Source: a bacterium (GTDB lineage Bacteria; Zhuqueibacterota; Zhuqueibacteria; Residuimicrobiales; Krinioviventaceae). Taken from it: DNA of 64,000 nucleotides. The notes beneath the pieces are model-generated. The model ran no database searches, was not told the DNA's origin, and saw nothing but the letters and a program-made list of their open reading frames with translations. Made by a program: the position numbers and the translations under genes. Below, piece by piece: positions 1 to 8,645 of the stretch; the stretch's first letter is position 1; each line of letters begins with the position of its first letter. Location of the stretch: NCBI GenBank assembly GCA_963693055.1, contig OY843751.1, forward strand, positions 1,344,001 through 1,408,000. The letters run 5' to 3'.

Positions 1-2333
1 CCGGATTTTCACCCATCGGTAATAGTAGCACCGAATTTACCGGCTCTTATGACGGCCAGTTATATAGCATTTCCGGATTGACCATCAACCGGTCATCAAC
101 CAGTGATGTCGGATTGTTTGGCCGTACCAGCGGCGCCATTCTGGAAAATATTGCAGTGATCAATGCGGATATTACCGGCAATGACGCTGTGGGTTGTCTG
201 GTGGGTAACAATAGGGCCAGCTCCACAGTAAGCAAAAGTTATTCTACCGGTACTGTCAGCGGTAACATAAATGTTGGGGGTATTACGGGTTTGAACTATA
301 ATGCCAGCCTGGCGCAGTGTTATGTTACGGCCGGTGTTAGCGGCGCCTCGGATGTGGGCGGACTGGTGGGCTCTAATTATATTTCCGCCACAACACAAAA
401 ATGTTATGCCCGGGGTGACGTTACCGGCACATCCAACATTGGCGGACTTGCTGGCTCGAATGCAGGTGGAACGGTCAGCAGATGTTATGCAACCGGTGAG
501 GTCTCGGGCTCATCCAATACCGGCGGACTGGTGGGTAATAACAATAATACAGTTACTGATAGCTTTTACGATGAATGGACCTCTGGGTGTAGCGATACCG
601 GTAAGGGAGAACCTGTAAATACAGTATTTATGAAAATCCACTTGACGTTTACTGATGCCAATTGGGACTTTGCCACAGAGACCGCCAACGGCAGCAACGA
701 TGTCTGGGACATGGATTACAACCAGGCAATAAACAGCGGTTACCCCTACCTGAGCTGGCAGGATGGCAGTAGTGTATCACTCAACTGGACAGCAGCAGCG
801 CCTGCTGACGGTGAGGGCACCAGCGGCGATCCCTACCAGATTGCCAATCTGGAAAATCTTGCCTGGTTGTCACTGTATGCCAATCACTGGGACAAATATT
901 ATATACAAACCGCAAACATTGATGCCTCGGCAACCAGTACCTGGAATGGAGGTGTAGGATTTTCACCCATCGGTAACAATTCTGTATGGTTTACCGGCAA
1001 TTACGACGGTCAATCTTACACTATCACCGGCCTGACCATCGATAGGTCAGGTACCAATAATATAGGTCTGTTTGGTTATACCAACGATGCCGTCATAAAA
1101 AATCTTGGGGTCTTGAGTGTTAATATTACCGGCAACAATAATGTGGGCAGTTTGATAGGCAATTTAAACGCCGGTACTGTAAAAAAGTGTTACTCTAACG
1201 GTAGTGTTTCCGGCAATGCCAAGGTTGGTGGTCTGGCAGGGTCCAACAACAGTGGGCTGCTTGGTCAGTGTTTTGCCAATACTGGTGTTTCGGGCGCTAC
1301 CGATATAGGTGGACTGGTGGGATACAACAACTATTCCTCTGATGTTAATAACTGTTATGCCAAAGGCAGTGTTTCCGGCACATCAAATGTGGGCGGTCTT
1401 GCCGGTTCAAATGTCTCATCAGCCATCCTGAATAAAAGTTATGCCAAAGGCAGTGTCTCCGGTTCTTCTGCCTCGGGTGGTCTGGTGGGTTTTAATGCTG
1501 GCGATGTGATTTTTTGCTTTTACGATTTAGAAACCACAGGGTGTAACGATACCGGCAAAGGCATACCCAAGTCTACAACAGATATGAAAATCCTGTCCAC
1601 ATTTACGGATGCGGACTGGGATTTTGAAGCAGAAACGGCTAACGGCAACAATGATTTTTGGGACCTGGATTGCAGTTGTTCCATAAACAATGGCTATCCC
1701 TTTCTCTCATGGTTAAATGGAGAAGATGTGGCCCTGCCCGTGGAATTGTACAGCTTTACAGCTGTTTGTGATAATGGCATAGTGATACTTGAATGGCAAA
1801 CCGCCAGTGAACGCGACAACCTGGGTTTTATACTTGAGCGACGAGATGAAAACAGCAACTGGCAGGAAATCAATTCTTACAAGATGTGTCAGACTCTGCA
1901 AGGGCAGGGAACAACTCCCTCGGAAACGGAATATTCCTACATTGATGATACGATTTCTCCCGGAAATACCTATACCTACCGTCTTTTGGATGTAAATACC
2001 AGTGGTGCGATAAATGTACTCGCATCTATATTGGTTAAAGTGGAATCTATTCCAACGACAACGCAATTATACCCTGCGTATCCGAATCCGTTCAATCCAT
2101 CTACAACCATCAGGTATGATCTGGCAAAAGACGGATATGTGAGTATTGCTGTATATGATGTGCTGGGCAGGCAGGTCAGGTCACTGTTTAACGGTGAGCA
2201 GGCTGCGGGGAGTTTTGATCTGCAATGGAACGGTCTCGATGATCTGGGTTGCCAGGTTTCGAGCGGTATTTATCTCGTTCGTTTTCAGACTGGTAATTTT
2301 ACCCGGACCCAAAAGGTTATGTTTGTAAAATAG
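1..2333 (+). CDS. Secreted GLUG-repeat (beta-helix) protein with LPVEL Ig-like domain and T9SS/FlgD-type C-terminal domain; 5'-truncated by the window
   Basis: Repeated VGGLVGxN/GxVSG GLUG motifs and a YPNPFNPSTTI C-terminus. The frame is open from the window start (GFSPIGN motif at about 3-23), so the real start lies upstream of base 1. Confidence 0.85.
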   Translation, partial: GFSPIGNSSTEFTGSYDGQLYSISGLTINRSSTSDVGLFGRTSGAILENIAVINADITGNDAVGCLVGNNRASSTVSKSYSTGTVSGNINVGGITGLNYNASLAQCYVTAGVSGASDVGGLVGSNYISATTQKCYARGDVTGTSNIGGLAGSNAGGTVSRCYATGEVSGSSNTGGLVGNNNNTVTDSFYDEWTSGCSDTGKGEPVNTVFMKIHLTFTDANWDFATETANGSNDVWDMDYNQAINSGYPYLSWQDGSSVSLNWTAAAPADGEGTSGDPYQIANLENLAWLSLYANHWDKYYIQTANIDASATSTWNGGVGFSPIGNNSVWFTGNYDGQSYTITGLTIDRSGTNNIGLFGYTNDAVIKNLGVLSVNITGNNNVGSLIGNLNAGTVKKCYSNGSVSGNAKVGGLAGSNNSGLLGQCFANTGVSGATDIGGLVGYNNYSSDVNNCYAKGSVSGTSNVGGLAGSNVSSAILNKSYAKGSVSGSSASGGLVGFNAGDVIFCFYDLETTGCNDTGKGIPKSTTDMKILSTFTDADWDFEAETANGNNDFWDLDCSCSINNGYPFLSWLNGEDVALPVELYSFTAVCDNGIVILEWQTASERDNLGFILERRDENSNWQEINSYKMCQTLQGQGTTPSETEYSYIDDTISPGNTYTYRLLDVNTSGAINVLASILVKVESIPTTTQLYPAYPNPFNPSTTIRYDLAKDGYVSIAVYDVLGRQVRSLFNGEQAAGSFDLQWNGLDDLGCQVSSGIYLVRFQTGNFTRTQKVMFVK

Positions 2334-2394
2334 TATCATATGACCAGAGGAGAAAAAGAAATTTATAAAACCCCCTAAAAATACAACGGAGCGT

Positions 2395-2421
2395 CAGATC
2401 ATTAATAAATTTGGTGATCTG
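2395..2421 (-). terminator. Hairpin downstream of the element A genes
   Basis: CAGATCATTAA-taaat-TTGGTGATCTG imperfect stem about 40 bp after the 2459 stop. Confidence 0.4.
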
Positions 2422-2458
2422 TCATTCTGAAAGTAATAAAAGGGAAATATAAAAGCAA

Positions 2459-3283
2459 CTAATTGTTCTTTGAAAGATTCAACTGACTCCTTTGATTTTT
2501 AATTTTATCAGGCAAAAGATCAACATATTGTTGTATGACACGTTTGGAAAGTCTTGCCAGCTGGCTGATTTGATCAAGGTTTTTAATGTCATGCTTCCAA
2601 AGTAATTCAACACGATGGTAATCTTTGATATACCTGTCAACCGCTTCGTTGCTGTGTTTGGTTTTCAAAGCGATTTCGGGAGTGAGATATCCCTCAAGAT
2701 ACAGAGTGATAATTTCGCGTTTATGAGTAATAGCGCCGGAAAGATCATGGATGTTGCCACGCGTTGGTAAGAGATGCCCTTCTTTTTGGATTTCATTTAC
2801 ATATTTACTGACAACGGCATCACAGACACCGAGTAACATAGCCAGGTCAAGTTGAGTAAGCAGAGCACCTTGATCAAAAGCTTCATCAACCCAACGTTTG
2901 AGGCGTCTTTTCCTTAAAGTTTTGGAATCAAAACCATGCGCGATATGAGAAGTATCCTGATCAGTAATGAAAGAGAGGACAACGGGTTTCATTCGGGTAG
3001 CGGCAATACTTTTTCCGCGTTTGGGGTATTCATCGACAGGAACAGCCATCCAGACGAGTTGCCCATAGTGAATATGGTGCAAGTCATCATCAATAGAGGA
3101 GACAAGGAAATAGTCATCAATGATTTTAAGGATATCATCAATGATGGCATTGGCAGTGATGGCTCCTTTGTCATAGCCATAGCTATTCAAAAAGTTGTAC
3201 AGTAGTAACTGCTTGAGATCTTTATCTTTAAGTCGTCTCATTTTTTTGAGTTGAATTTGTTCTTTAGTCAAAGGTTTACTCAT
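2459..3283 (-). CDS. DUF1670-family protein, B-type subunit (element A)
   Basis: GALLTQLDLAMLL HTH, then TRG..HD, THK..II.LY..G and HS...RY motifs. The ATG at 3283 has a GGAGG RBS (3292-3296); the frame stays open back to 3337. Confidence 0.75.
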   Translation of the reverse strand: MSKPLTKEQIQLKKMRRLKDKDLKQLLLYNFLNSYGYDKGAITANAIIDDILKIIDDYFLVSSIDDDLHHIHYGQLVWMAVPVDEYPKRGKSIAATRMKPVVLSFITDQDTSHIAHGFDSKTLRKRRLKRWVDEAFDQGALLTQLDLAMLLGVCDAVVSKYVNEIQKEGHLLPTRGNIHDLSGAITHKREIITLYLEGYLTPEIALKTKHSNEAVDRYIKDYHRVELLWKHDIKNLDQISQLARLSKRVIQQYVDLLPDKIKNQRSQLNLSKNN

Positions 3284-4115
3284 TTTCTTTGCCTCCTGAT
3301 AGATGTTGAGGAATGGATTTTTTTTTCGCGTCGCCACCAGGTTCCGCAGGAGATAACAGATCGTTTAATCGCGTATTGTTTTGTTGAAGATAGGTTTGGT
3401 AGAGTTGGATATACTCGCGCACCAGGCGGTCGGATTTCTTTGCAATGAGTCGAATCTGGTTCGGAGAGAAATTTTCCTTGTATAAAAGGGCGATCTGCAT
3501 AAAGTCAGCGAGGTAACGTTTGATGCTGGTTTCAGAATGATTGGTTTTTTGTTCTATTTCTGAAAAGGTATAACCTTTAAGATACAGATCAATAATGATG
3601 GTTTTATGAGACAGTCCGGGACCCATGTCATGTTTCATACCTCGTGTCATGATAAACATACCGTGATGACGGAGATGATAAATGTCACGTTTAACAGTGG
3701 CCGGACTGGTGGTTAAAAGCATTGCCAGGTCTTCATAGCTGAGTAAAGCACCCTGATCATAGGCTTGTCGAGTCAGACGGGCGATCCGGTGTCGTCTAAG
3801 TCCGGCAAGGCCATAATTAGCCAGGGCTTGCAGATCTGTATTAAAGTCAATTAGTTTGAGACGGACCGTAAGCTTTCGGGTTAATCTGATATGTTTGCCG
3901 GCTGGTTCTTCAGCGGCAACAGCTTCATAAGCGACTTCACCTCCTGATAATGAAATGTTGGAATGTTCCTGAAAGTATTGGTCAAATTGTTGATAGTAAG
4001 CTTCGGCAATAATAGGAGTCAAATTGAAATCCTGAGACAGTTTTTGGACAATAGCGTTTTTAGCTGTCTTGGATTCGAGTCTTTTTAAACCATAATTATT
4101 TTTAACATCTGCCAT
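3276..4115 (-). CDS. DUF1670-family protein, A-type subunit (element A)
   Basis: GALLSYEDLAMLLTTSPATVKRDI HTH, TRGMKHDMG, SHK and HSETSIKRY motifs; AAGGAG RBS. Confidence 0.75.
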   Translation of the reverse strand: MADVKNNYGLKRLESKTAKNAIVQKLSQDFNLTPIIAEAYYQQFDQYFQEHSNISLSGGEVAYEAVAAEEPAGKHIRLTRKLTVRLKLIDFNTDLQALANYGLAGLRRHRIARLTRQAYDQGALLSYEDLAMLLTTSPATVKRDIYHLRHHGMFIMTRGMKHDMGPGLSHKTIIIDLYLKGYTFSEIEQKTNHSETSIKRYLADFMQIALLYKENFSPNQIRLIAKKSDRLVREYIQLYQTYLQQNNTRLNDLLSPAEPGGDAKKKSIPQHLSGGKENE

Positions 4116-4215
4116 AAGAATCTCCTTATTTCTGTTTTTATTAAAACAATGATTCCTATGGTCATATGCACTAAACTTTAAATAATTATATTTTGATAAA
4201 GGTAAGGGGCAAAGC

Positions 4216-4246
4216 GTGCCAGGGATACTTATTGCATCACTGGCAC
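4216..4246. terminator. Hairpin in the 90-bp spacer between the two elements; probably the original terminator of the convergent flanking genes
   Basis: GTGCCAG.GAT...ATC.CTGGCAC stem followed by a T-rich tract. Confidence 0.55.
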
Positions 4247-4311
4247 TTGTTTTATTTACGTTTAGGAAATATTTCCGGTAGGTTGTTTTTAAGATTAGAA
4301 CATTTATTCAT

Positions 4312-4362
4312 TTTTTCAGCTAACGAAAGGAGCTCGTAGGGCGACTGGAGTTAGCTGAAAAA
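4312..4362 (-). terminator. 13-bp stem-loop inside element B, downstream of its genes
   Basis: TTTTTCAGCTAAC (4312-4324) pairs with GTTAGCTGAAAAA (4350-4362); 25-nt loop. Confidence 0.5.
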
Positions 4363-4399
4363 CAATGACAACCTAACCTATTAATTCCTTTTCAAATTT

Positions 4400-5215
4400 T
4401 CAAGTTTTCTTTTGTATTAAATCTGAATGATAATGATAAACCAGATCACGATATTGTAATATTGTACTCCGTCCTAATCCGGTTATTCTTACCATTTCCA
4501 TTAAATTAAAACCTTTTTCCAATAATGATTTTACGTTCTTGTAACTCTTTAAATACCGACTCGTTGATTCAATTGTGTGATTTGTAATCCGGGCGATATC
4601 CGGTTCGGGATATCCCTGCTCGTACAAATCTATAATTGCGGCTTTATGCGTCGGCTTACTGCCCTGATCCAGCATCATTCCTTTAGTCGGCAATATATCA
4701 TCATGCGTTTCATGATAAATTGTCATATACCGACCAATAGTGTTTAATGAGCGATTCAACAATACACTGAGTTCTGCACCTGTCAACCAGCCGCCCTGTT
4801 CTGCCGCACTCTTGCATAACCGCGCCATTACTTTAATATCCCGTTCTGTTTGTTTTTCATAATTAGCACTGCCATCTTTTGGGGGATAAGAATAATGGCT
4901 TTTGATACGATTGTCAATATCCGCATCTGTTACCAACGGTAGCACAACTGTCTGAACCTCATAATCTTCCGCTTTTGTGCCATAACTTGGCTTTCGGTTT
5001 GTCGCTTTGGTTGTCCGCCAGATAATCTGACCAAAACTTTTCTTTTCCAGCTCTGGATAAAATTCATTTTGCAATGCGACAATATCTTCTGCAATCATCC
5101 GGATGACTTTGTGGCTTCCCAGCATTTTATAATTTTCTTCCAGTAATCGAATAATCGCATTTTGAAAGCTACGCTTAGCTATTGATTCATAACGATTTAA
5201 AGGCTTAGTCTTCAT
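4400..5215 (-). CDS. DUF1670-family protein, B-type subunit (element B)
   Basis: GGWLTGAELSVLL HTH, TKG..LDQG, THK..IIDLYEQG and HTIESTSRY motifs; AAGGAGG RBS. Confidence 0.75.
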   Translation of the reverse strand: MKTKPLNRYESIAKRSFQNAIIRLLEENYKMLGSHKVIRMIAEDIVALQNEFYPELEKKSFGQIIWRTTKATNRKPSYGTKAEDYEVQTVVLPLVTDADIDNRIKSHYSYPPKDGSANYEKQTERDIKVMARLCKSAAEQGGWLTGAELSVLLNRSLNTIGRYMTIYHETHDDILPTKGMMLDQGSKPTHKAAIIDLYEQGYPEPDIARITNHTIESTSRYLKSYKNVKSLLEKGFNLMEMVRITGLGRSTILQYRDLVYHYHSDLIQKKT

Positions 5216-6032
5216 CGATCCCCTCCTTGGTTTGTTTTTTTTTCGAGGGGTATAACACCTTTAATTGCTCCAATAACTCTACATAGATCGGCGGCCATTT
5301 GTCACCCTGTTTATGATGCTCAAAAATATCCAGGTACTCACGGGTCAAACGCTCACTTTGGCCTAATAACCGACTGATCTCTTTGATATCCTGCATACCA
5401 TGATTCAGTAATAACAACAGCCTGCCAAAGCTGCACACATATCGTTTTATTGAAAACGCGCTATGACGACTTTTACGAATAATTGCATCGTATGTGTCTC
5501 CCTGCAAATACAGTTCAATAATGTGGCTTTTGTGTGACAAGCTCCGACCGATGTCATGGTCTGTTCCGCGCGTGTGAATAAAGTTGCCATCAGTCTGCAA
5601 AGACTTTATATCCTGGCGTACAGTGCGGCTCGTAACCTGGAGGATCCGGGCCAAATCCTCTTGTGTCAAAGAACCTTCCTGATCCCAGGCTTCTTCGGTC
5701 AATCGTAAGACCTTTAACTGGCGCAGTGCCTTGGGACCGCTTTCTTTTAATACATTTAAATCTTCTACACCGGCATCCAGTGTTAACTCTACTTCTTTCA
5801 ATTCCTGCTCACCCAGGGGCTTGCCATGTTTTGCCTTGGTGGATGCGCAGATATATTTTATTTTACCAACTGTCTGGGGAACCTCGCCAAATAAACACTG
5901 CTTGGCTAAATCCAATATCCCTTTACTTTCTGCCGGTGATAATTCAAATTCTTTTCGTAAAGAATTGATGAATACTTGCTCGGGTGTTTTTTCTAATATC
6001 CTGTCATACAAACTACTACGAGTATTGTACAT
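5205..6032 (-). CDS. DUF1670-family protein, A-type subunit (element B)
   Basis: GSLTQEDLARILQVTSRTVRQDI HTH, TRGTDHDIG, SHK and HSAFSIKRY motifs; GGAGG RBS. Confidence 0.75.
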   Translation of the reverse strand: MYNTRSSLYDRILEKTPEQVFINSLRKEFELSPAESKGILDLAKQCLFGEVPQTVGKIKYICASTKAKHGKPLGEQELKEVELTLDAGVEDLNVLKESGPKALRQLKVLRLTEEAWDQEGSLTQEDLARILQVTSRTVRQDIKSLQTDGNFIHTRGTDHDIGRSLSHKSHIIELYLQGDTYDAIIRKSRHSAFSIKRYVCSFGRLLLLLNHGMQDIKEISRLLGQSERLTREYLDIFEHHKQGDKWPPIYVELLEQLKVLYPSKKKQTKEGIDED

Positions 6033-6137
6033 TTGTCCTCCGGTAAGTTTTGAAATCTTTGTTTGACTTCCGGTTACTTCTAGTAAATACTATATGAAAT
6101 AACCGCCTTTTTTCCAAAACCTACCGGAAAATTTTCC

Positions 6138-8645
6138 TTATTTCACAAACAAAGCTTTTCTGATTTTAATACAATTTCCTGTTTCCAGTTTGTAAAAATA
6201 TATGCCGCTTGAAAGATCCTCCGCATTCATCATGTAGGTGTATACTCCCGCTCCTTTTTGTTCGTTCACAAGTTCACGAACTTTTTCCCCCAATACATTA
6301 TACAGGGTCAGTTTTACATTTGATTTGTAGGGTACAGCATAGTTGATTGTTGTTGTCGGGTTAAAGGGATTGGGATAGTTTTGCTCTAATCTAAACCGAG
6401 TGGGGATTGCCGTATCCTTCTCTCTGGAATCGATGCGAGTATAAACAGGAGGCTCTTCCGGTACCCAGTCATAGCTGAAACGAGGATTAGATGTTTTTGC
6501 AAAAATGTTTTCAAGGGTATATTCGGCAGCTTCTTCATCGGATAGTTGTCTGGATATAGGAGTTCTATATGTTGTATCCGCACCTTCACCGTAACAGTTG
6601 TATTCTGCGTATAATGCCGGTGGCACATTCCAGGCCGACCATCCCACTAGTGAAAGAGCTGCAGGCTCTTGCGTATTGATGAATACCGTGCGTGGCGCTC
6701 CCTGCCAGGGGCGACCCAGCACAAAAGTATAAATCTCTTTGCCATCAAACCCAATATTATCATTACTAATGATACAATCTTTGAATACATAACCGAATTT
6801 GGAATCTGCTTCTGTGGCTGCTGCTGTCAGGGCTCCACCGTTTCGGTTGATGTGAATTTCGCAGCTATCAAACAGCACAATATTACGTCCGAAAATAAAA
6901 TCAACCGATCCTTCAATGTAGCAGTTTTTCATATAGGTCCTGCCTGTACCCCGGCCACCCCAGGTATAGTAAGTGTCCTGATATCCGAGCAGTCTGCAGT
7001 TATAATAGCTTTGCCGGTCTCCGTTTACACGTAGAGCAACCGCCTGTTGGTCTTCAAAACTACCGTCATTCATTACAGTGTTCTGAAAAGTAATATTAAC
7101 TGCTGTAAAGTCATCCGCATCAATTGCTGTGCTGTACGAATTGGAGGTGCCGCCTGCTTTGCCAGCATAATCATCAAATGTGAGTATGGTACTGTCCGCA
7201 TTTTCACCCCGAAGCGTTACATTGAGCTTTTCTCTGTCAAGTAGCAGCTTTTCGTAATATACTCCATTTTTGATATAAATATAATAATTACCGGTATATT
7301 TGTCCGGAATGTTATCAAACGCTTGCTGAACAGTAGTATAATCTCCATTGCCCGAATGGTCAACCACTTTATAGACATCCGGTTGGGGAGCCAGAGTAGT
7401 GAATTCGCGGACCGATCCATAACCGGTCCCGGCGCTATTGGTAGCATACGCACAGACGTAATAGGTTGTGGTTTCCTGCAAGGGGTAGATCAAGCTGTTA
7501 AAGGCTGACATGCCGTCACCTTCTATGTTATAACTGTCATCCAGAGTAGGGGAGCCGGTAGTATTCCACACCAGACCTTTCGCGGTAATTTCGGCGCCGC
7601 CCCAGTCAATAACACTGCCGCCGCATTCAGCGGTTTCTACACGTACATTAGAAACACCGGCAGTAAATACCCAGGGAACATCTAATGAATCAAGGGTTTT
7701 GAATGTAATTTCTTCTCCATAAGCAGTACCTGCGGCATTTATAGCATATGCTTTGGCAAAATATTCTGTACCGGGAGTTAGGCCCGTCAAATGACTTGTA
7801 AAGGCACCAGAGCCGGTTCCATCTGATGTGTGATTGTTTTCGATAGTGGGGGAACCTGTGGTATTCCAAACAACACCACGTTGAGTAATTTGTGCGCCAC
7901 CATCAGATTCAATATCACCTCCGCAGGTGCAATAAGTGGTGGAAACAAATGTAGCATCTTCCGTAGAGAGACTGGCTAAATCGTATTCAATTTCACCTTC
8001 CACAGTGCCACTAATTTTGACATCTTTTAATAAAAGATATTTACCGGTAAGGCCGCTGGTTTGATTGTGGACCCAGGGATAGACTCGCAGGTAAAAAGTT
8101 CTATCGCCAGGGATCTGTACATTTAAATTCAAGGATACTGTATGCAACGAGTCGGCACGTAATATATATCCGTTGCTTTCAAGCACAAGAGAAGCAGGGA
8201 TTTCTTCAAATGTATTGAAATCAGGATCCTGTGAGTAAAGAATACGGGCTTTAAGATAGTTGGTATAGTCCGCTCCAATTTTTAAAGAAGTGTTTTTGAT
8301 TGTGAGATCTGTGCCGCTCATTGCGGATACGGCAAACTGTGTATAAACCGATTCAATGATGTCGGTTTGATTCTCCGGCCATTGTGTGGCTCCACCCGGG
8401 GGACGGTTGTCGCTGCGTTGGCTGTTTTTGGCACCGGTGTAACTATTTACGCGCATACCAACGAATTGCTGATCCACTGCATCTATAGGGCCGGAGGTCA
8501 AAACGGTTAGTCCGCTACCTTCTGTCGCTGGATCACTCAACTCCCACAATGCATATGCAGAGGTGGTTTCATTTACCTCTTGTCCAAAACTATTACCGGT
8601 AATGAAAAGAGTACAAAATAACAAAAGAAATGTTTGTCGATTCAT
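6138..8645 (-). CDS. Secreted pectin methylesterase (CE8) with FN3-like repeats and T9SS-type CTD
   Basis: CE8 motifs GVYYEK, QAVALRV, GYQDTYY, YIEGSVDFIFG and LGRPW; signal peptide; YPNPFNPTT C-terminus. Confidence 0.9.
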   Translation of the reverse strand: MNRQTFLLLFCTLFITGNSFGQEVNETTSAYALWELSDPATEGSGLTVLTSGPIDAVDQQFVGMRVNSYTGAKNSQRSDNRPPGGATQWPENQTDIIESVYTQFAVSAMSGTDLTIKNTSLKIGADYTNYLKARILYSQDPDFNTFEEIPASLVLESNGYILRADSLHTVSLNLNVQIPGDRTFYLRVYPWVHNQTSGLTGKYLLLKDVKISGTVEGEIEYDLASLSTEDATFVSTTYCTCGGDIESDGGAQITQRGVVWNTTGSPTIENNHTSDGTGSGAFTSHLTGLTPGTEYFAKAYAINAAGTAYGEEITFKTLDSLDVPWVFTAGVSNVRVETAECGGSVIDWGGAEITAKGLVWNTTGSPTLDDSYNIEGDGMSAFNSLIYPLQETTTYYVCAYATNSAGTGYGSVREFTTLAPQPDVYKVVDHSGNGDYTTVQQAFDNIPDKYTGNYYIYIKNGVYYEKLLLDREKLNVTLRGENADSTILTFDDYAGKAGGTSNSYSTAIDADDFTAVNITFQNTVMNDGSFEDQQAVALRVNGDRQSYYNCRLLGYQDTYYTWGGRGTGRTYMKNCYIEGSVDFIFGRNIVLFDSCEIHINRNGGALTAAATEADSKFGYVFKDCIISNDNIGFDGKEIYTFVLGRPWQGAPRTVFINTQEPAALSLVGWSAWNVPPALYAEYNCYGEGADTTYRTPISRQLSDEEAAEYTLENIFAKTSNPRFSYDWVPEEPPVYTRIDSREKDTAIPTRFRLEQNYPNPFNPTTTINYAVPYKSNVKLTLYNVLGEKVRELVNEQKGAGVYTYMMNAEDLSSGIYFYKLETGNCIKIRKALFVK

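Follow-up and report, generated by a model that had tools for sequence, protein, structure and literature searches.

The 64,000-nucleotide stretch of DNA analyzed here (hereafter the window; contig OY843751.1 of GenBank assembly GCA_963693055.1, positions 1,344,001 to 1,408,000, from a bacterium of the family Krinioviventaceae) carries two mobile elements, E1 and E2, that are inserted into the last codons of two convergent genes for secreted proteins (Table 1). Each element consists of one A-type and one B-type gene of the DUF1670 family (PF07900) and contains no other gene; insertion takes place without target-site duplication, and one end of the element supplies a replacement for the lysine codon and stop codon of the interrupted gene. 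Judged by their sequences, E1 and E2 are insertion sequences, probably autonomous, of what appears to be an undescribed family. All four reading frames match PF07900 with 160–211 bits (E-values from 5e-48 to 2e-62; the gathering score is 25 bits), together with weaker Pfam matches to many helix-turn-helix families, in agreement with a first-pass annotation that had described two units with nothing but an A-type and a B-type DUF1670 reading frame.

Copies and Empty Sites

The genome that contains the window (G000; 6.5 Mb in a single contig) yields 26 PF07900 matches, all arranged in adjacent pairs (13 pairs). BLAST searches recover six copies of E1 with 99.7–100% identity and seven copies of E2, six of them with 98.6–100% and one with 92% identity; in public assemblies of the same organism, E1 appears as a separate unitig with a depth of 60, compared to approximately 10 in its flanks. 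In G001, a sister species from the same genus, the flanks of the window elements and the 67-bp spacer between the two target genes are contiguous, and E1 and E2 are both precisely absent; the spacer region is colinear with G001:C3:3402113-3402193 at 83% identity. With three more insertion sites, precise empty alleles were found in G001 at five sites. The features by which insertion sequences are recognized, near-identical copies at several sites and precise empty sites in relatives, are thus both present, and E1 and E2 are mobile elements. The earlier proposal of mobility is borne out by the 13 copies at different sites of the host assembly, by the five empty alleles, and by the patchy distribution of the gene family across phyla. 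According to the first-pass annotation, deletion of both units would bring two convergent genes for secreted proteins to within approximately 90 bp of each other, with a terminator in between; G001 shows this layout, with a hairpin in a spacer of 67 bp. The single E2 copy of G001 permits no inference in the reverse direction, as its flanks are not colinear with the orthologous site in G000.

The Flanking Pentamer Is Carried by the Element

Junctions were compared in a non-redundant set of 63 insertions that belong to E1-like or E2-like elements. Of these, 13 are from the own genome and 50 were drawn from 84 loci of other genomes; the loci left out lacked one end, were duplicates, or had ends that did not match the patterns, the last group including the arginine-stop variants L107 and L108. 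Each window copy is flanked by a pentamer repeat that reads AAATA on the strand of the target gene (and TATTT on the complementary strand). On the gene side, AAATA is found in 62 of the 63 insertions; the far-side pentamer is AAATA in 34, AAGTA in 12, AAGTG in 7, AAATG in 3 and some other sequence in 7. The two pentamers are identical in 35 insertions and different in 28, and the variant is then always the far-side one. The same far-side spectrum was obtained independently when metagenome contigs were scanned with an end sequence of 20 bases (38, 11, 6 and 4, respectively, in 64 distinct contexts). The far hexamer represents an in-frame lysine-stop of the target gene in 56 of the 63 insertions, with both lysine codons and all three stop codons represented.

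Empty sites in the sister species provide a direct test. The arrangement AAATA-[E2]-AAGTAG in the own genome corresponds to a single AAGTAG in G001, and AAATA-[E1]-AAAAA corresponds to a single AAAAA; a further case, the copy at genome position 56386, where G001 has AAATAA and the own far copy reads AAGTAA, is ambiguous since its flank has diverged to 83% identity. From the pentamer counts and the two empty sites it follows that the far copy is the native end of the gene and that the gene-side AAATA travels with the element, and therefore that the mobile units extend over positions 2328–4179 and 4258–6143. The borders originally assigned to the two units were wrong at one end each and had to be revised on the evidence of the copies and empty sites, giving element bodies of 2333–4179 and 4258–6138. 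The duplicated flanks that had been read as TA and TTA have to be abandoned: the actual repeat is AAATA, and the differing pentamers in 28 insertions, together with the empty sites, show that it did not arise by target duplication. Terminal repeats bounded by a duplicated flank are thus an incorrect picture, which is replaced by one without duplication, in which one end carries a replacement lysine-stop.

Insertion takes place between the penultimate codon and the final lysine codon of the target gene, and the element brings AAATAG (E1) or AAATAA (E2), so that the interrupted gene retains its lysine and its stop. The crossover has to be placed at the first two bases or just 5' of them; in the far copies, these bases are AA in 61 of the 63 insertions, and the junctions are base-exact in all 63.

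Several unusual arrangements were observed beside these insertions. In L107 and L108, related elements occupy gene ends with an arginine-stop in place of the lysine-stop; L107 has CGATA on both sides, and in L108 the gene-side pentamer is AGATA and the far one CGATA, with two synonymous arginine codons, from which it follows that the carried pentamer evolves with the class of target. At G000:C1:507851-511583, two copies directly adjoin each other with a single AAATA between them (gene-AAATA-[E2]-AAATA-[E1]-AAATA-flank); here the target of one element was the pentamer at the junction of the other. A lone 31-bp E2 far end with TATTT, located beside a terminator hairpin at G000:C1:333436-333466, looks like a remnant or an abortive event. 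On a 26-kb metagenome contig (L180), an E1-like far end is followed by AAATA and then by the first 12 bases of a gene-side end, representing either two tandem elements or a remnant; given its position inside a long contig, this is no free circle.

Target Choice and Orientation

A type IX secretion sorting domain (PF18962) forms the C-terminus of both target genes in the window. Before insertion, the sites encode K-M-h-h-h-K-stop, where h is a hydrophobic residue, with information at the second base of each hydrophobic codon; target recognition spans approximately 18 nt on the opposite side of the insertion point. A site-scoring matrix built solely from the targets in other genomes places 11 of the 13 own-genome insertions within sites that score at least 10, of which the own genome has 1,121, compared to 40,757 AAATA pentamers. 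Two of the own-genome insertions lie outside sorting-domain gene ends: the copy that abuts E2, and the E1 copy at G000:C1:6088451, which is preceded by ...TATCATATAT, a sequence similar to the gene-side repeat of the element itself (TATCATATGACC). This resemblance could be due to chance, or the location could be a decoy site. The coding ends for the sorting domain (window positions 2052–2190 and 6290–6390) have more than 30 short matches in G001, several of them clustered at G001:C3:3.39-3.43 Mb; these repeated ends thus give the host a large family of near-identical landing sites.

Within each element type, all insertions have the same orientation. E1-type genes point toward the target gene, and E2-type genes run in the direction of the target gene; relative to the ends and the target, the A-B cassette is inverted between the two types, as it is between loci L052–L098 and L109–L115. 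The genes of E2-type elements lie just downstream of the stop codon of the target gene and could be expressed by read-through.

Element Ends

The terminal inverted repeats (coordinates in Table 1) comprise 21 nt with 90% identity in E2 and 15 nt with 93% identity in E1. Both repeats had been noticed in the first-pass annotation and are present. By itself, the E1 repeat is no better than chance, as other pairs of 15–16 nt with 93–94% identity occur within the same 4.1 kb; it becomes convincing only through 32 distinct E1-like elements in other genomes that have the repeat at their ends. In 22 E1-like elements, the first 25 nt of the gene-side end are 92% conserved. Every end holds a 12-bp palindrome or near-palindrome: GGTCATATGACC in the relatives of E1, and GGAAATATTTCC and GGAAAATTTTCC at the far and gene-side ends of E2. 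The far end has an additional ...TAAAC(T/G)T(T) between palindrome and crossover, which is common to E1 and E2 despite their differing palindromes; otherwise the repeats of the two elements are unrelated, and their A proteins are only 32% identical. If the two ends were joined, the crossover in this presumed junction would lie 13–14 nt from the center of one palindrome and 12 nt from that of the other.

The DUF1670 Proteins

The DUF1670 family comprises 2,376 representatives of 50%-identity clusters at E ≤ 0.001, with hosts among the Ignavibacteria, Bacteroidota, Cloacimonadota, KSB1, Fidelibacterota, Poribacteria, Halanaerobiales and others, and also in Methanosarcina. Its distribution is patchy; the family occurs in 10 of 41 relatives and, across the phylum, in 33 of 167 genomes. 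The name transposase is attached to none of the 120 closest homologs, most of which are found on contigs of 1–2.3 kb, as expected for repeats, which break in this way in assemblies. The A and B proteins represent two old clades (69 and 39 of 108 sequences, respectively), and their reading frames overlap in both window units. Purifying selection on A and B alike is strong, with ratios of nonsynonymous to synonymous polymorphism (pN/pS) of 0.07–0.27 (0.10–0.11 for E2 B and 0.07–0.08 for E2 A). The residues conserved in both clades are, in E1A numbering, R113, Q121, R158, G159, D163, H170, K171, H193, R200, Y201 and Y235; among them, R113, Q121, R158, H170, K171, H193, Y201 and Y235 are 87–100% conserved in both clades although the DNA sites differ.

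The family includes 26 members of at least 480 residues: three A-B fusions, 19 tandem A'-A proteins of approximately 500–660 residues, and four proteins of 930–952 residues (P0121, P0122, P0125 and P0126) with four DUF1670 modules in the order A'-A-B'-B. The architecture of these four proteins hints that four modules may act together. Pfam scans of 12 long members found DUF1670 and helix-turn-helix-type families only, and no enzyme domain.

Candidate Mechanism and Alternatives

The DUF1670 pair is likely the catalytic machinery of these elements, as suggested by terminal repeats that co-vary with their own protein pair, by purifying selection on both genes, and by the lack of any other gene. 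That the A/B pair, two co-translated paralogs, itself performs a conservative, site-specific break-and-join reaction, as the recombinase of the element, appears to us somewhat better than an even chance. The more comprehensive proposal has to be worded more tentatively and falls a little short of even: that DUF1670 A/B constitutes a new class of transposase or site-specific recombinase, built entirely of helix-turn-helix modules, acting as a hetero-tetramer without target duplication on a protein-read target of approximately 20 bp, and occurring throughout Bacteria and Archaea in thousands of lineages, where it would everywhere bear the annotation of a hypothetical regulator. In such a reaction, an A/B hetero-oligomer, probably with four modules in all, would bind the 12-bp palindrome in each terminal repeat and pair the two ends into a junction that reads palindrome, 13–14 nt, crossover, 12 nt, palindrome; it would read the last six codons of the target, and would break and rejoin DNA conservatively at, or just 5' of, the AA that the element pentamer and the target lysine codon have in common. 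The active site would be built from the invariant arginine, histidine, lysine and tyrosine residues on the helix-turn-helix modules. Binding, end pairing, a circular intermediate and catalysis are all steps that we infer.

Sequence and structure searches recovered no known recombination enzyme, as the first-pass annotation had already noted for DDE, HUH and serine recombinase motifs. Among the four proteins, there is no match to the DEDD transposase families PF01548 and PF02371, to the HUH family Y1_Tnp, or to the serine recombinase family PF00239. Pfam and NCBIfam return no DDE family at E ≤ 0.1, and no RNase-H-like fold is found among the Foldseek and VIA-align matches, in which residues 1–95 are barely covered; proteins of 270–290 residues with three helix-turn-helix modules also leave little room for a DDE domain. 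The tyrosine recombinase family PF00589 has no sequence match and no such chain occurs in the fold searches, an absence that cannot exclude membership in this family. NCBIfam, which carries the NCBI models used for naming transposases, does not recognize the four proteins, and the ESM Atlas returns DUF1670 clusters only. The AlphaFold2 model of E1A (predicted local distance difference test score, pLDDT, 87.5) shows three N-terminal helices, a beta hairpin, a 30-residue helix, a winged helix-turn-helix and two more helix-turn-helix modules; the invariant arginine, histidine, lysine and tyrosine residues sit on the helix-turn-helix modules. When the full A model was compared with known folds, no recombinase, nuclease or topoisomerase stood out; a match to the winged helix of topoisomerase VI-A (Z 5.8) was rejected, as it is tied with dozens of regulators and the matched part lacks an invariant tyrosine.

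A number of these and further results weigh against catalysis by the DUF1670 pair. The searches brought up no catalytic fold: the four proteins match only DUF1670 and helix-turn-helix families in Pfam and NCBIfam, a sequence search of the PDB gives only winged-helix regulators, Foldseek finds no PDB match to the E1A model at E ≤ 0.001 (the best rows are tandem winged-helix proteins), and VIA-align against 48,161 chains reaches at most Z 6.6, always with helix-turn-helix domains and within residues 95–243. The N-terminal 95 residues, folded alone from a single sequence, gave a pLDDT of 47.5, too poor for a fold search, and the fold-search negatives therefore bear mainly on residues 95–243 and barely cover residues 1–95. 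The invariant residues occupy positions at which helix-turn-helix motifs often contact the DNA backbone (wing, turn and recognition helix), and their role may be a structural one and not catalysis. Conserved residues common to the A and B clades do not include a serine. Finally, no back-joined (circular) junction or excision product occurs in the Logan assembled contigs, which drop rare forms; two "skip" joints in these contigs have sides of only 23–25 nt within repeated sorting-domain sequence and are uninformative for rare forms.

These negatives would be accommodated if the DUF1670 pair only recognized the ends and the target and left the chemistry to a widespread host enzyme that it recruits. 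Candidates would be a tyrosine recombinase of the Xer type, a topoisomerase, or template switching during replication over the short AA(A) homology. Such recruitment would resemble that by elements that exploit XerCD, and the proteins, as helix-turn-helix modules with a small N-terminal part of helices and a beta hairpin and no detected enzyme fold, would suit a role in recognition. A common host factor would also fit the crossover sequence TAAAC.T | AAATA, which E1 and E2 have in common while their protein-binding repeats differ, and the resemblance between the element pentamer and the target pentamer. This alternative, the main rival, is nevertheless the less probable one, and we regard it as unlikely, if worth serious consideration: a family that spans Methanosarcina and many bacterial phyla would require a recruited host factor of near-universal occurrence, the base-exact junctions in all 63 insertions are unlike template switching, and the invariant arginine, histidine, lysine and tyrosine residues are kept in both paralogs though the bound DNA differs. 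The lack of a catalytic domain could also mean that E1 and E2 are non-autonomous and rely on a transposase from another locus, acting in trans, with the DUF1670 pair as cargo, for example as regulators. Cargo status is very improbable, as there are two unrelated repeat types, each with its own diverged protein pair, the elements contain nothing but the pair at all loci examined, across phyla, purifying selection acts strongly on both genes, and the homologs reside mostly on contigs of element length.

Two further mechanisms find some resonance in the structure of the elements. Single-strand "peel and paste" transposition, as in IS200/IS605, inserts beside a specific pentanucleotide and ends in a similar pentanucleotide of the element; the absence of target duplication, the fixed element-borne pentamer on one flank with the target's pentamer on the other, and the short palindrome in each end all recall this pattern. 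Yet an HUH/Y1 protein is missing, the four ends fold as single strands no better than shuffled sequences (0 to -3.6 kcal/mol), target recognition extends approximately 18 nt beyond the insertion point, and the sense strand of the target gene is the leading strand in nine of the 13 own-genome insertions and the lagging strand in four, which is no strict strand bias; with this evidence, the single-strand route has a marginally smaller chance than the cargo explanation. The inverted repeats and the identical AAATA that flanks both window copies would at first sight suggest a classical DDE insertion sequence with a 5-bp duplication at preferred AAATA sites. This is the least probable reading of all, with hardly any chance of being correct, given that the pentamers differ in 28 of 63 insertions with the variant always on the far side, that two empty sites carry the far variant, and that neither a DDE domain nor an RNase-H-like fold was found. 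Classical cut-and-paste with a staggered target cut is excluded by the data, which agree with a conservative break-and-join that is specific for site and orientation.

Comparison with Known Systems

E1 and E2 resemble Tn7 with its TnsD protein at attTn7, for which the conserved 3' end of a coding gene likewise serves as a safe place to land without damage to the gene product. Tn7 inserts downstream of the stop codon, generates a 5-bp duplication and employs five proteins including a DDE transposase; in contrast, E1 and E2 insert inside the last codons and rebuild them. Their 13 scattered sites also differ from the single dif locus of Xer-exploiting elements (IMEX). Elements with serine recombinases (IS607, resolvases and invertases, large serine integrases) perform conservative break-and-join reactions as tetramers at a 2-bp core, which sets the orientation when it is not palindromic. 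The shared AA would fit a 2-bp core, a long helix followed by helix-turn-helix is found in both cases, and the four-module DUF1670 fusions may be compared to the tetramers; on the other hand, the DUF1670 proteins have no PF00239 match and no conserved serine. The gamma-delta resolvase appears at rank 48 of the Foldseek results, with an E-value of 0.35.

There is also a formal resemblance in several respects to IS1111/IS110 elements, which use a DEDD transposase with a seeker or bridge RNA, as described in a recent preprint (bioRxiv 10.1101/2024.04.26.591405). These elements have in common with E1 and E2 a small size with strict site and orientation specificity, the absence of a real target duplication with a dinucleotide common to both junctions (here AA), an inverted repeat that is subterminal at one end, and a gene arrangement that is reversed relative to the ends between two subgroups (here E1 and E2) (10.1101/2024.04.26.591405). 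A difference lies in the proteins, since E1 and E2 encode two helix-turn-helix proteins in place of one DEDD enzyme. A guide RNA of the IS110/IS1111 type is unlikely in E1 and E2, as far as can be judged from sequence comparisons. Beyond the first 25 nt, only 25–40% of 22 elements with the same target match the window base; the best target-like stretches inside E1 and E2 score 7.6 and 5.4, within the range of shuffled sequences, a comparison from which very short matches could escape; and Rfam gives no match at E ≤ 1 in window positions 2000–6500. The single-strand mechanism of IS200/IS605 is likewise unlikely.

SE and Tn554 elements have paired paralogous tyrosine recombinases with an RHRY motif and a length of 6–16 kb, and carry 6 bp that derive from the previous site and change with every hop (PMC10214605). 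A paralogous protein pair, target specificity, the absence of target duplication, and one short flank that travels with the element while the other is the target's own are features of these elements that E1 and E2 also show (PMC10214605). In contrast to the changing 6 bp, the pentamer carried by E1 and E2 is constant (AAATA in 62 of 63), and at 1.85 kb the elements are considerably shorter. For the DUF1670 proteins, neither a PF00589 match nor a fold of this type was found.

Implications

If the DUF1670 pair is indeed the enzyme, DNA strand transfer by it would involve either a new chemistry or a new protein scaffold, and its base-exact, orientation-specific and scar-free insertion at a protein-read target would be attractive as a genome-insertion tool; if a host enzyme is recruited instead, the elements would have found a new way of hijacking one. 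To our knowledge, all known prokaryotic transposable elements use DDE, DEDD, HUH, serine or tyrosine enzymes. E1 and E2 belong to a widespread and clearly active element family that carries none of these five enzyme types as far as detected. Under either reading, thousands of "hypothetical regulators" in databases would become mobile-element genes, and the breaks of metagenome contigs at the ends of type IX secretion genes are accounted for. The spare lysine-stop, which keeps the interrupted gene intact, is an unusually clear strategy for harmless landing. The new contributions of this analysis are the count demonstrating that the pentamer is element-borne, its confirmation by empty sites, the matrix test of targets, and the tests for a guide RNA and for a single-strand mechanism. 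The earlier statement that DUF1670 had not been described as a transposase agrees with the full-text literature searched, in which DUF1670 and PF07900 do not appear (ISfinder lay outside this search); broader full-text literature searches also gave no description of such elements.

Layout of the Window Region

Table 1. Features of the E1 and E2 insertion region (window coordinates).
Feature	Position	Strand	Description and basis
Target gene 1	3..2333	+	GLUG-repeat protein with C-terminal type IX secretion sorting domain, end ...KVMFVK*; 5' end cut by window
E1 mobile unit, 1852 bp	2328..4179		Carried pentamer AAATA 2328-2332 and body 2333-4179; copy alignment, empty site
E1 gene-side inverted repeat	2337..2351		Contains palindrome TCATATGA
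E1 B-type DUF1670 gene	2459..3283	-	PF07900, E 2e-62; B clade
E1 A-type DUF1670 gene, 279 aa	3276..4115	-	PF07900, E 1e-58; A clade
E1 far end	4154..4179		Inverted repeat 4154-4168, then spacer ...CACTAAACTTT to crossover point
Native lysine-stop AAATAA of target gene 1, displaced by E1	4180..4185	+	Single AAATAA in G001 empty site
Original intergenic spacer of convergent target genes	4186..4251		GC-rich hairpin GTGCCAG...CTGGCAC
Native lysine-stop AAATAA of target gene 2, displaced by E2	4252..4257	-	
E2 mobile unit, 1886 bp	4258..6143		Body 4258-6138 and carried pentamer 6139-6143 (TATTT; AAATA on target-gene strand)
E2 far-end inverted repeat	4264..4284		12-bp palindrome GGAAATATTTCC; preceded by spacer ACGTTTA 4258-4264
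E2 B-type DUF1670 gene, 271 aa	4400..5215	-	PF07900, E 5e-48; B clade; start overlaps end of gene A by 11 nt
E2 A-type DUF1670 gene, 275 aa	5205..6032	-	PF07900, E 7e-47; A clade
E2 gene-side inverted repeat	6118..6138		Palindrome GGAAAATTTTCC
Target gene 2	6138..8645	-	Pectinesterase with C-terminal type IX secretion sorting domain, end ...ALFVK*

The sorting domain of target gene 1 matches PF18962 (Por_Secre_tail) with an E-value of 3e-08, above the 27-bit cut-off; by the junction analysis, the final lysine codon of this gene and the TA of its stop codon (2328–2332), as well as the G at position 2333, are derived from E1. Target gene 2 matches PF01095 (E 1e-56) and, likewise above that cut-off, PF18962 (E 3e-10), and its final lysine codon and stop codon are now supplied by E2. 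The longest reading frame of the E1 B gene begins with GTG at position 3337; its likely start is the ATG at position 3283, which is preceded by a GGAGG ribosome-binding site and overlaps the stop of gene A.

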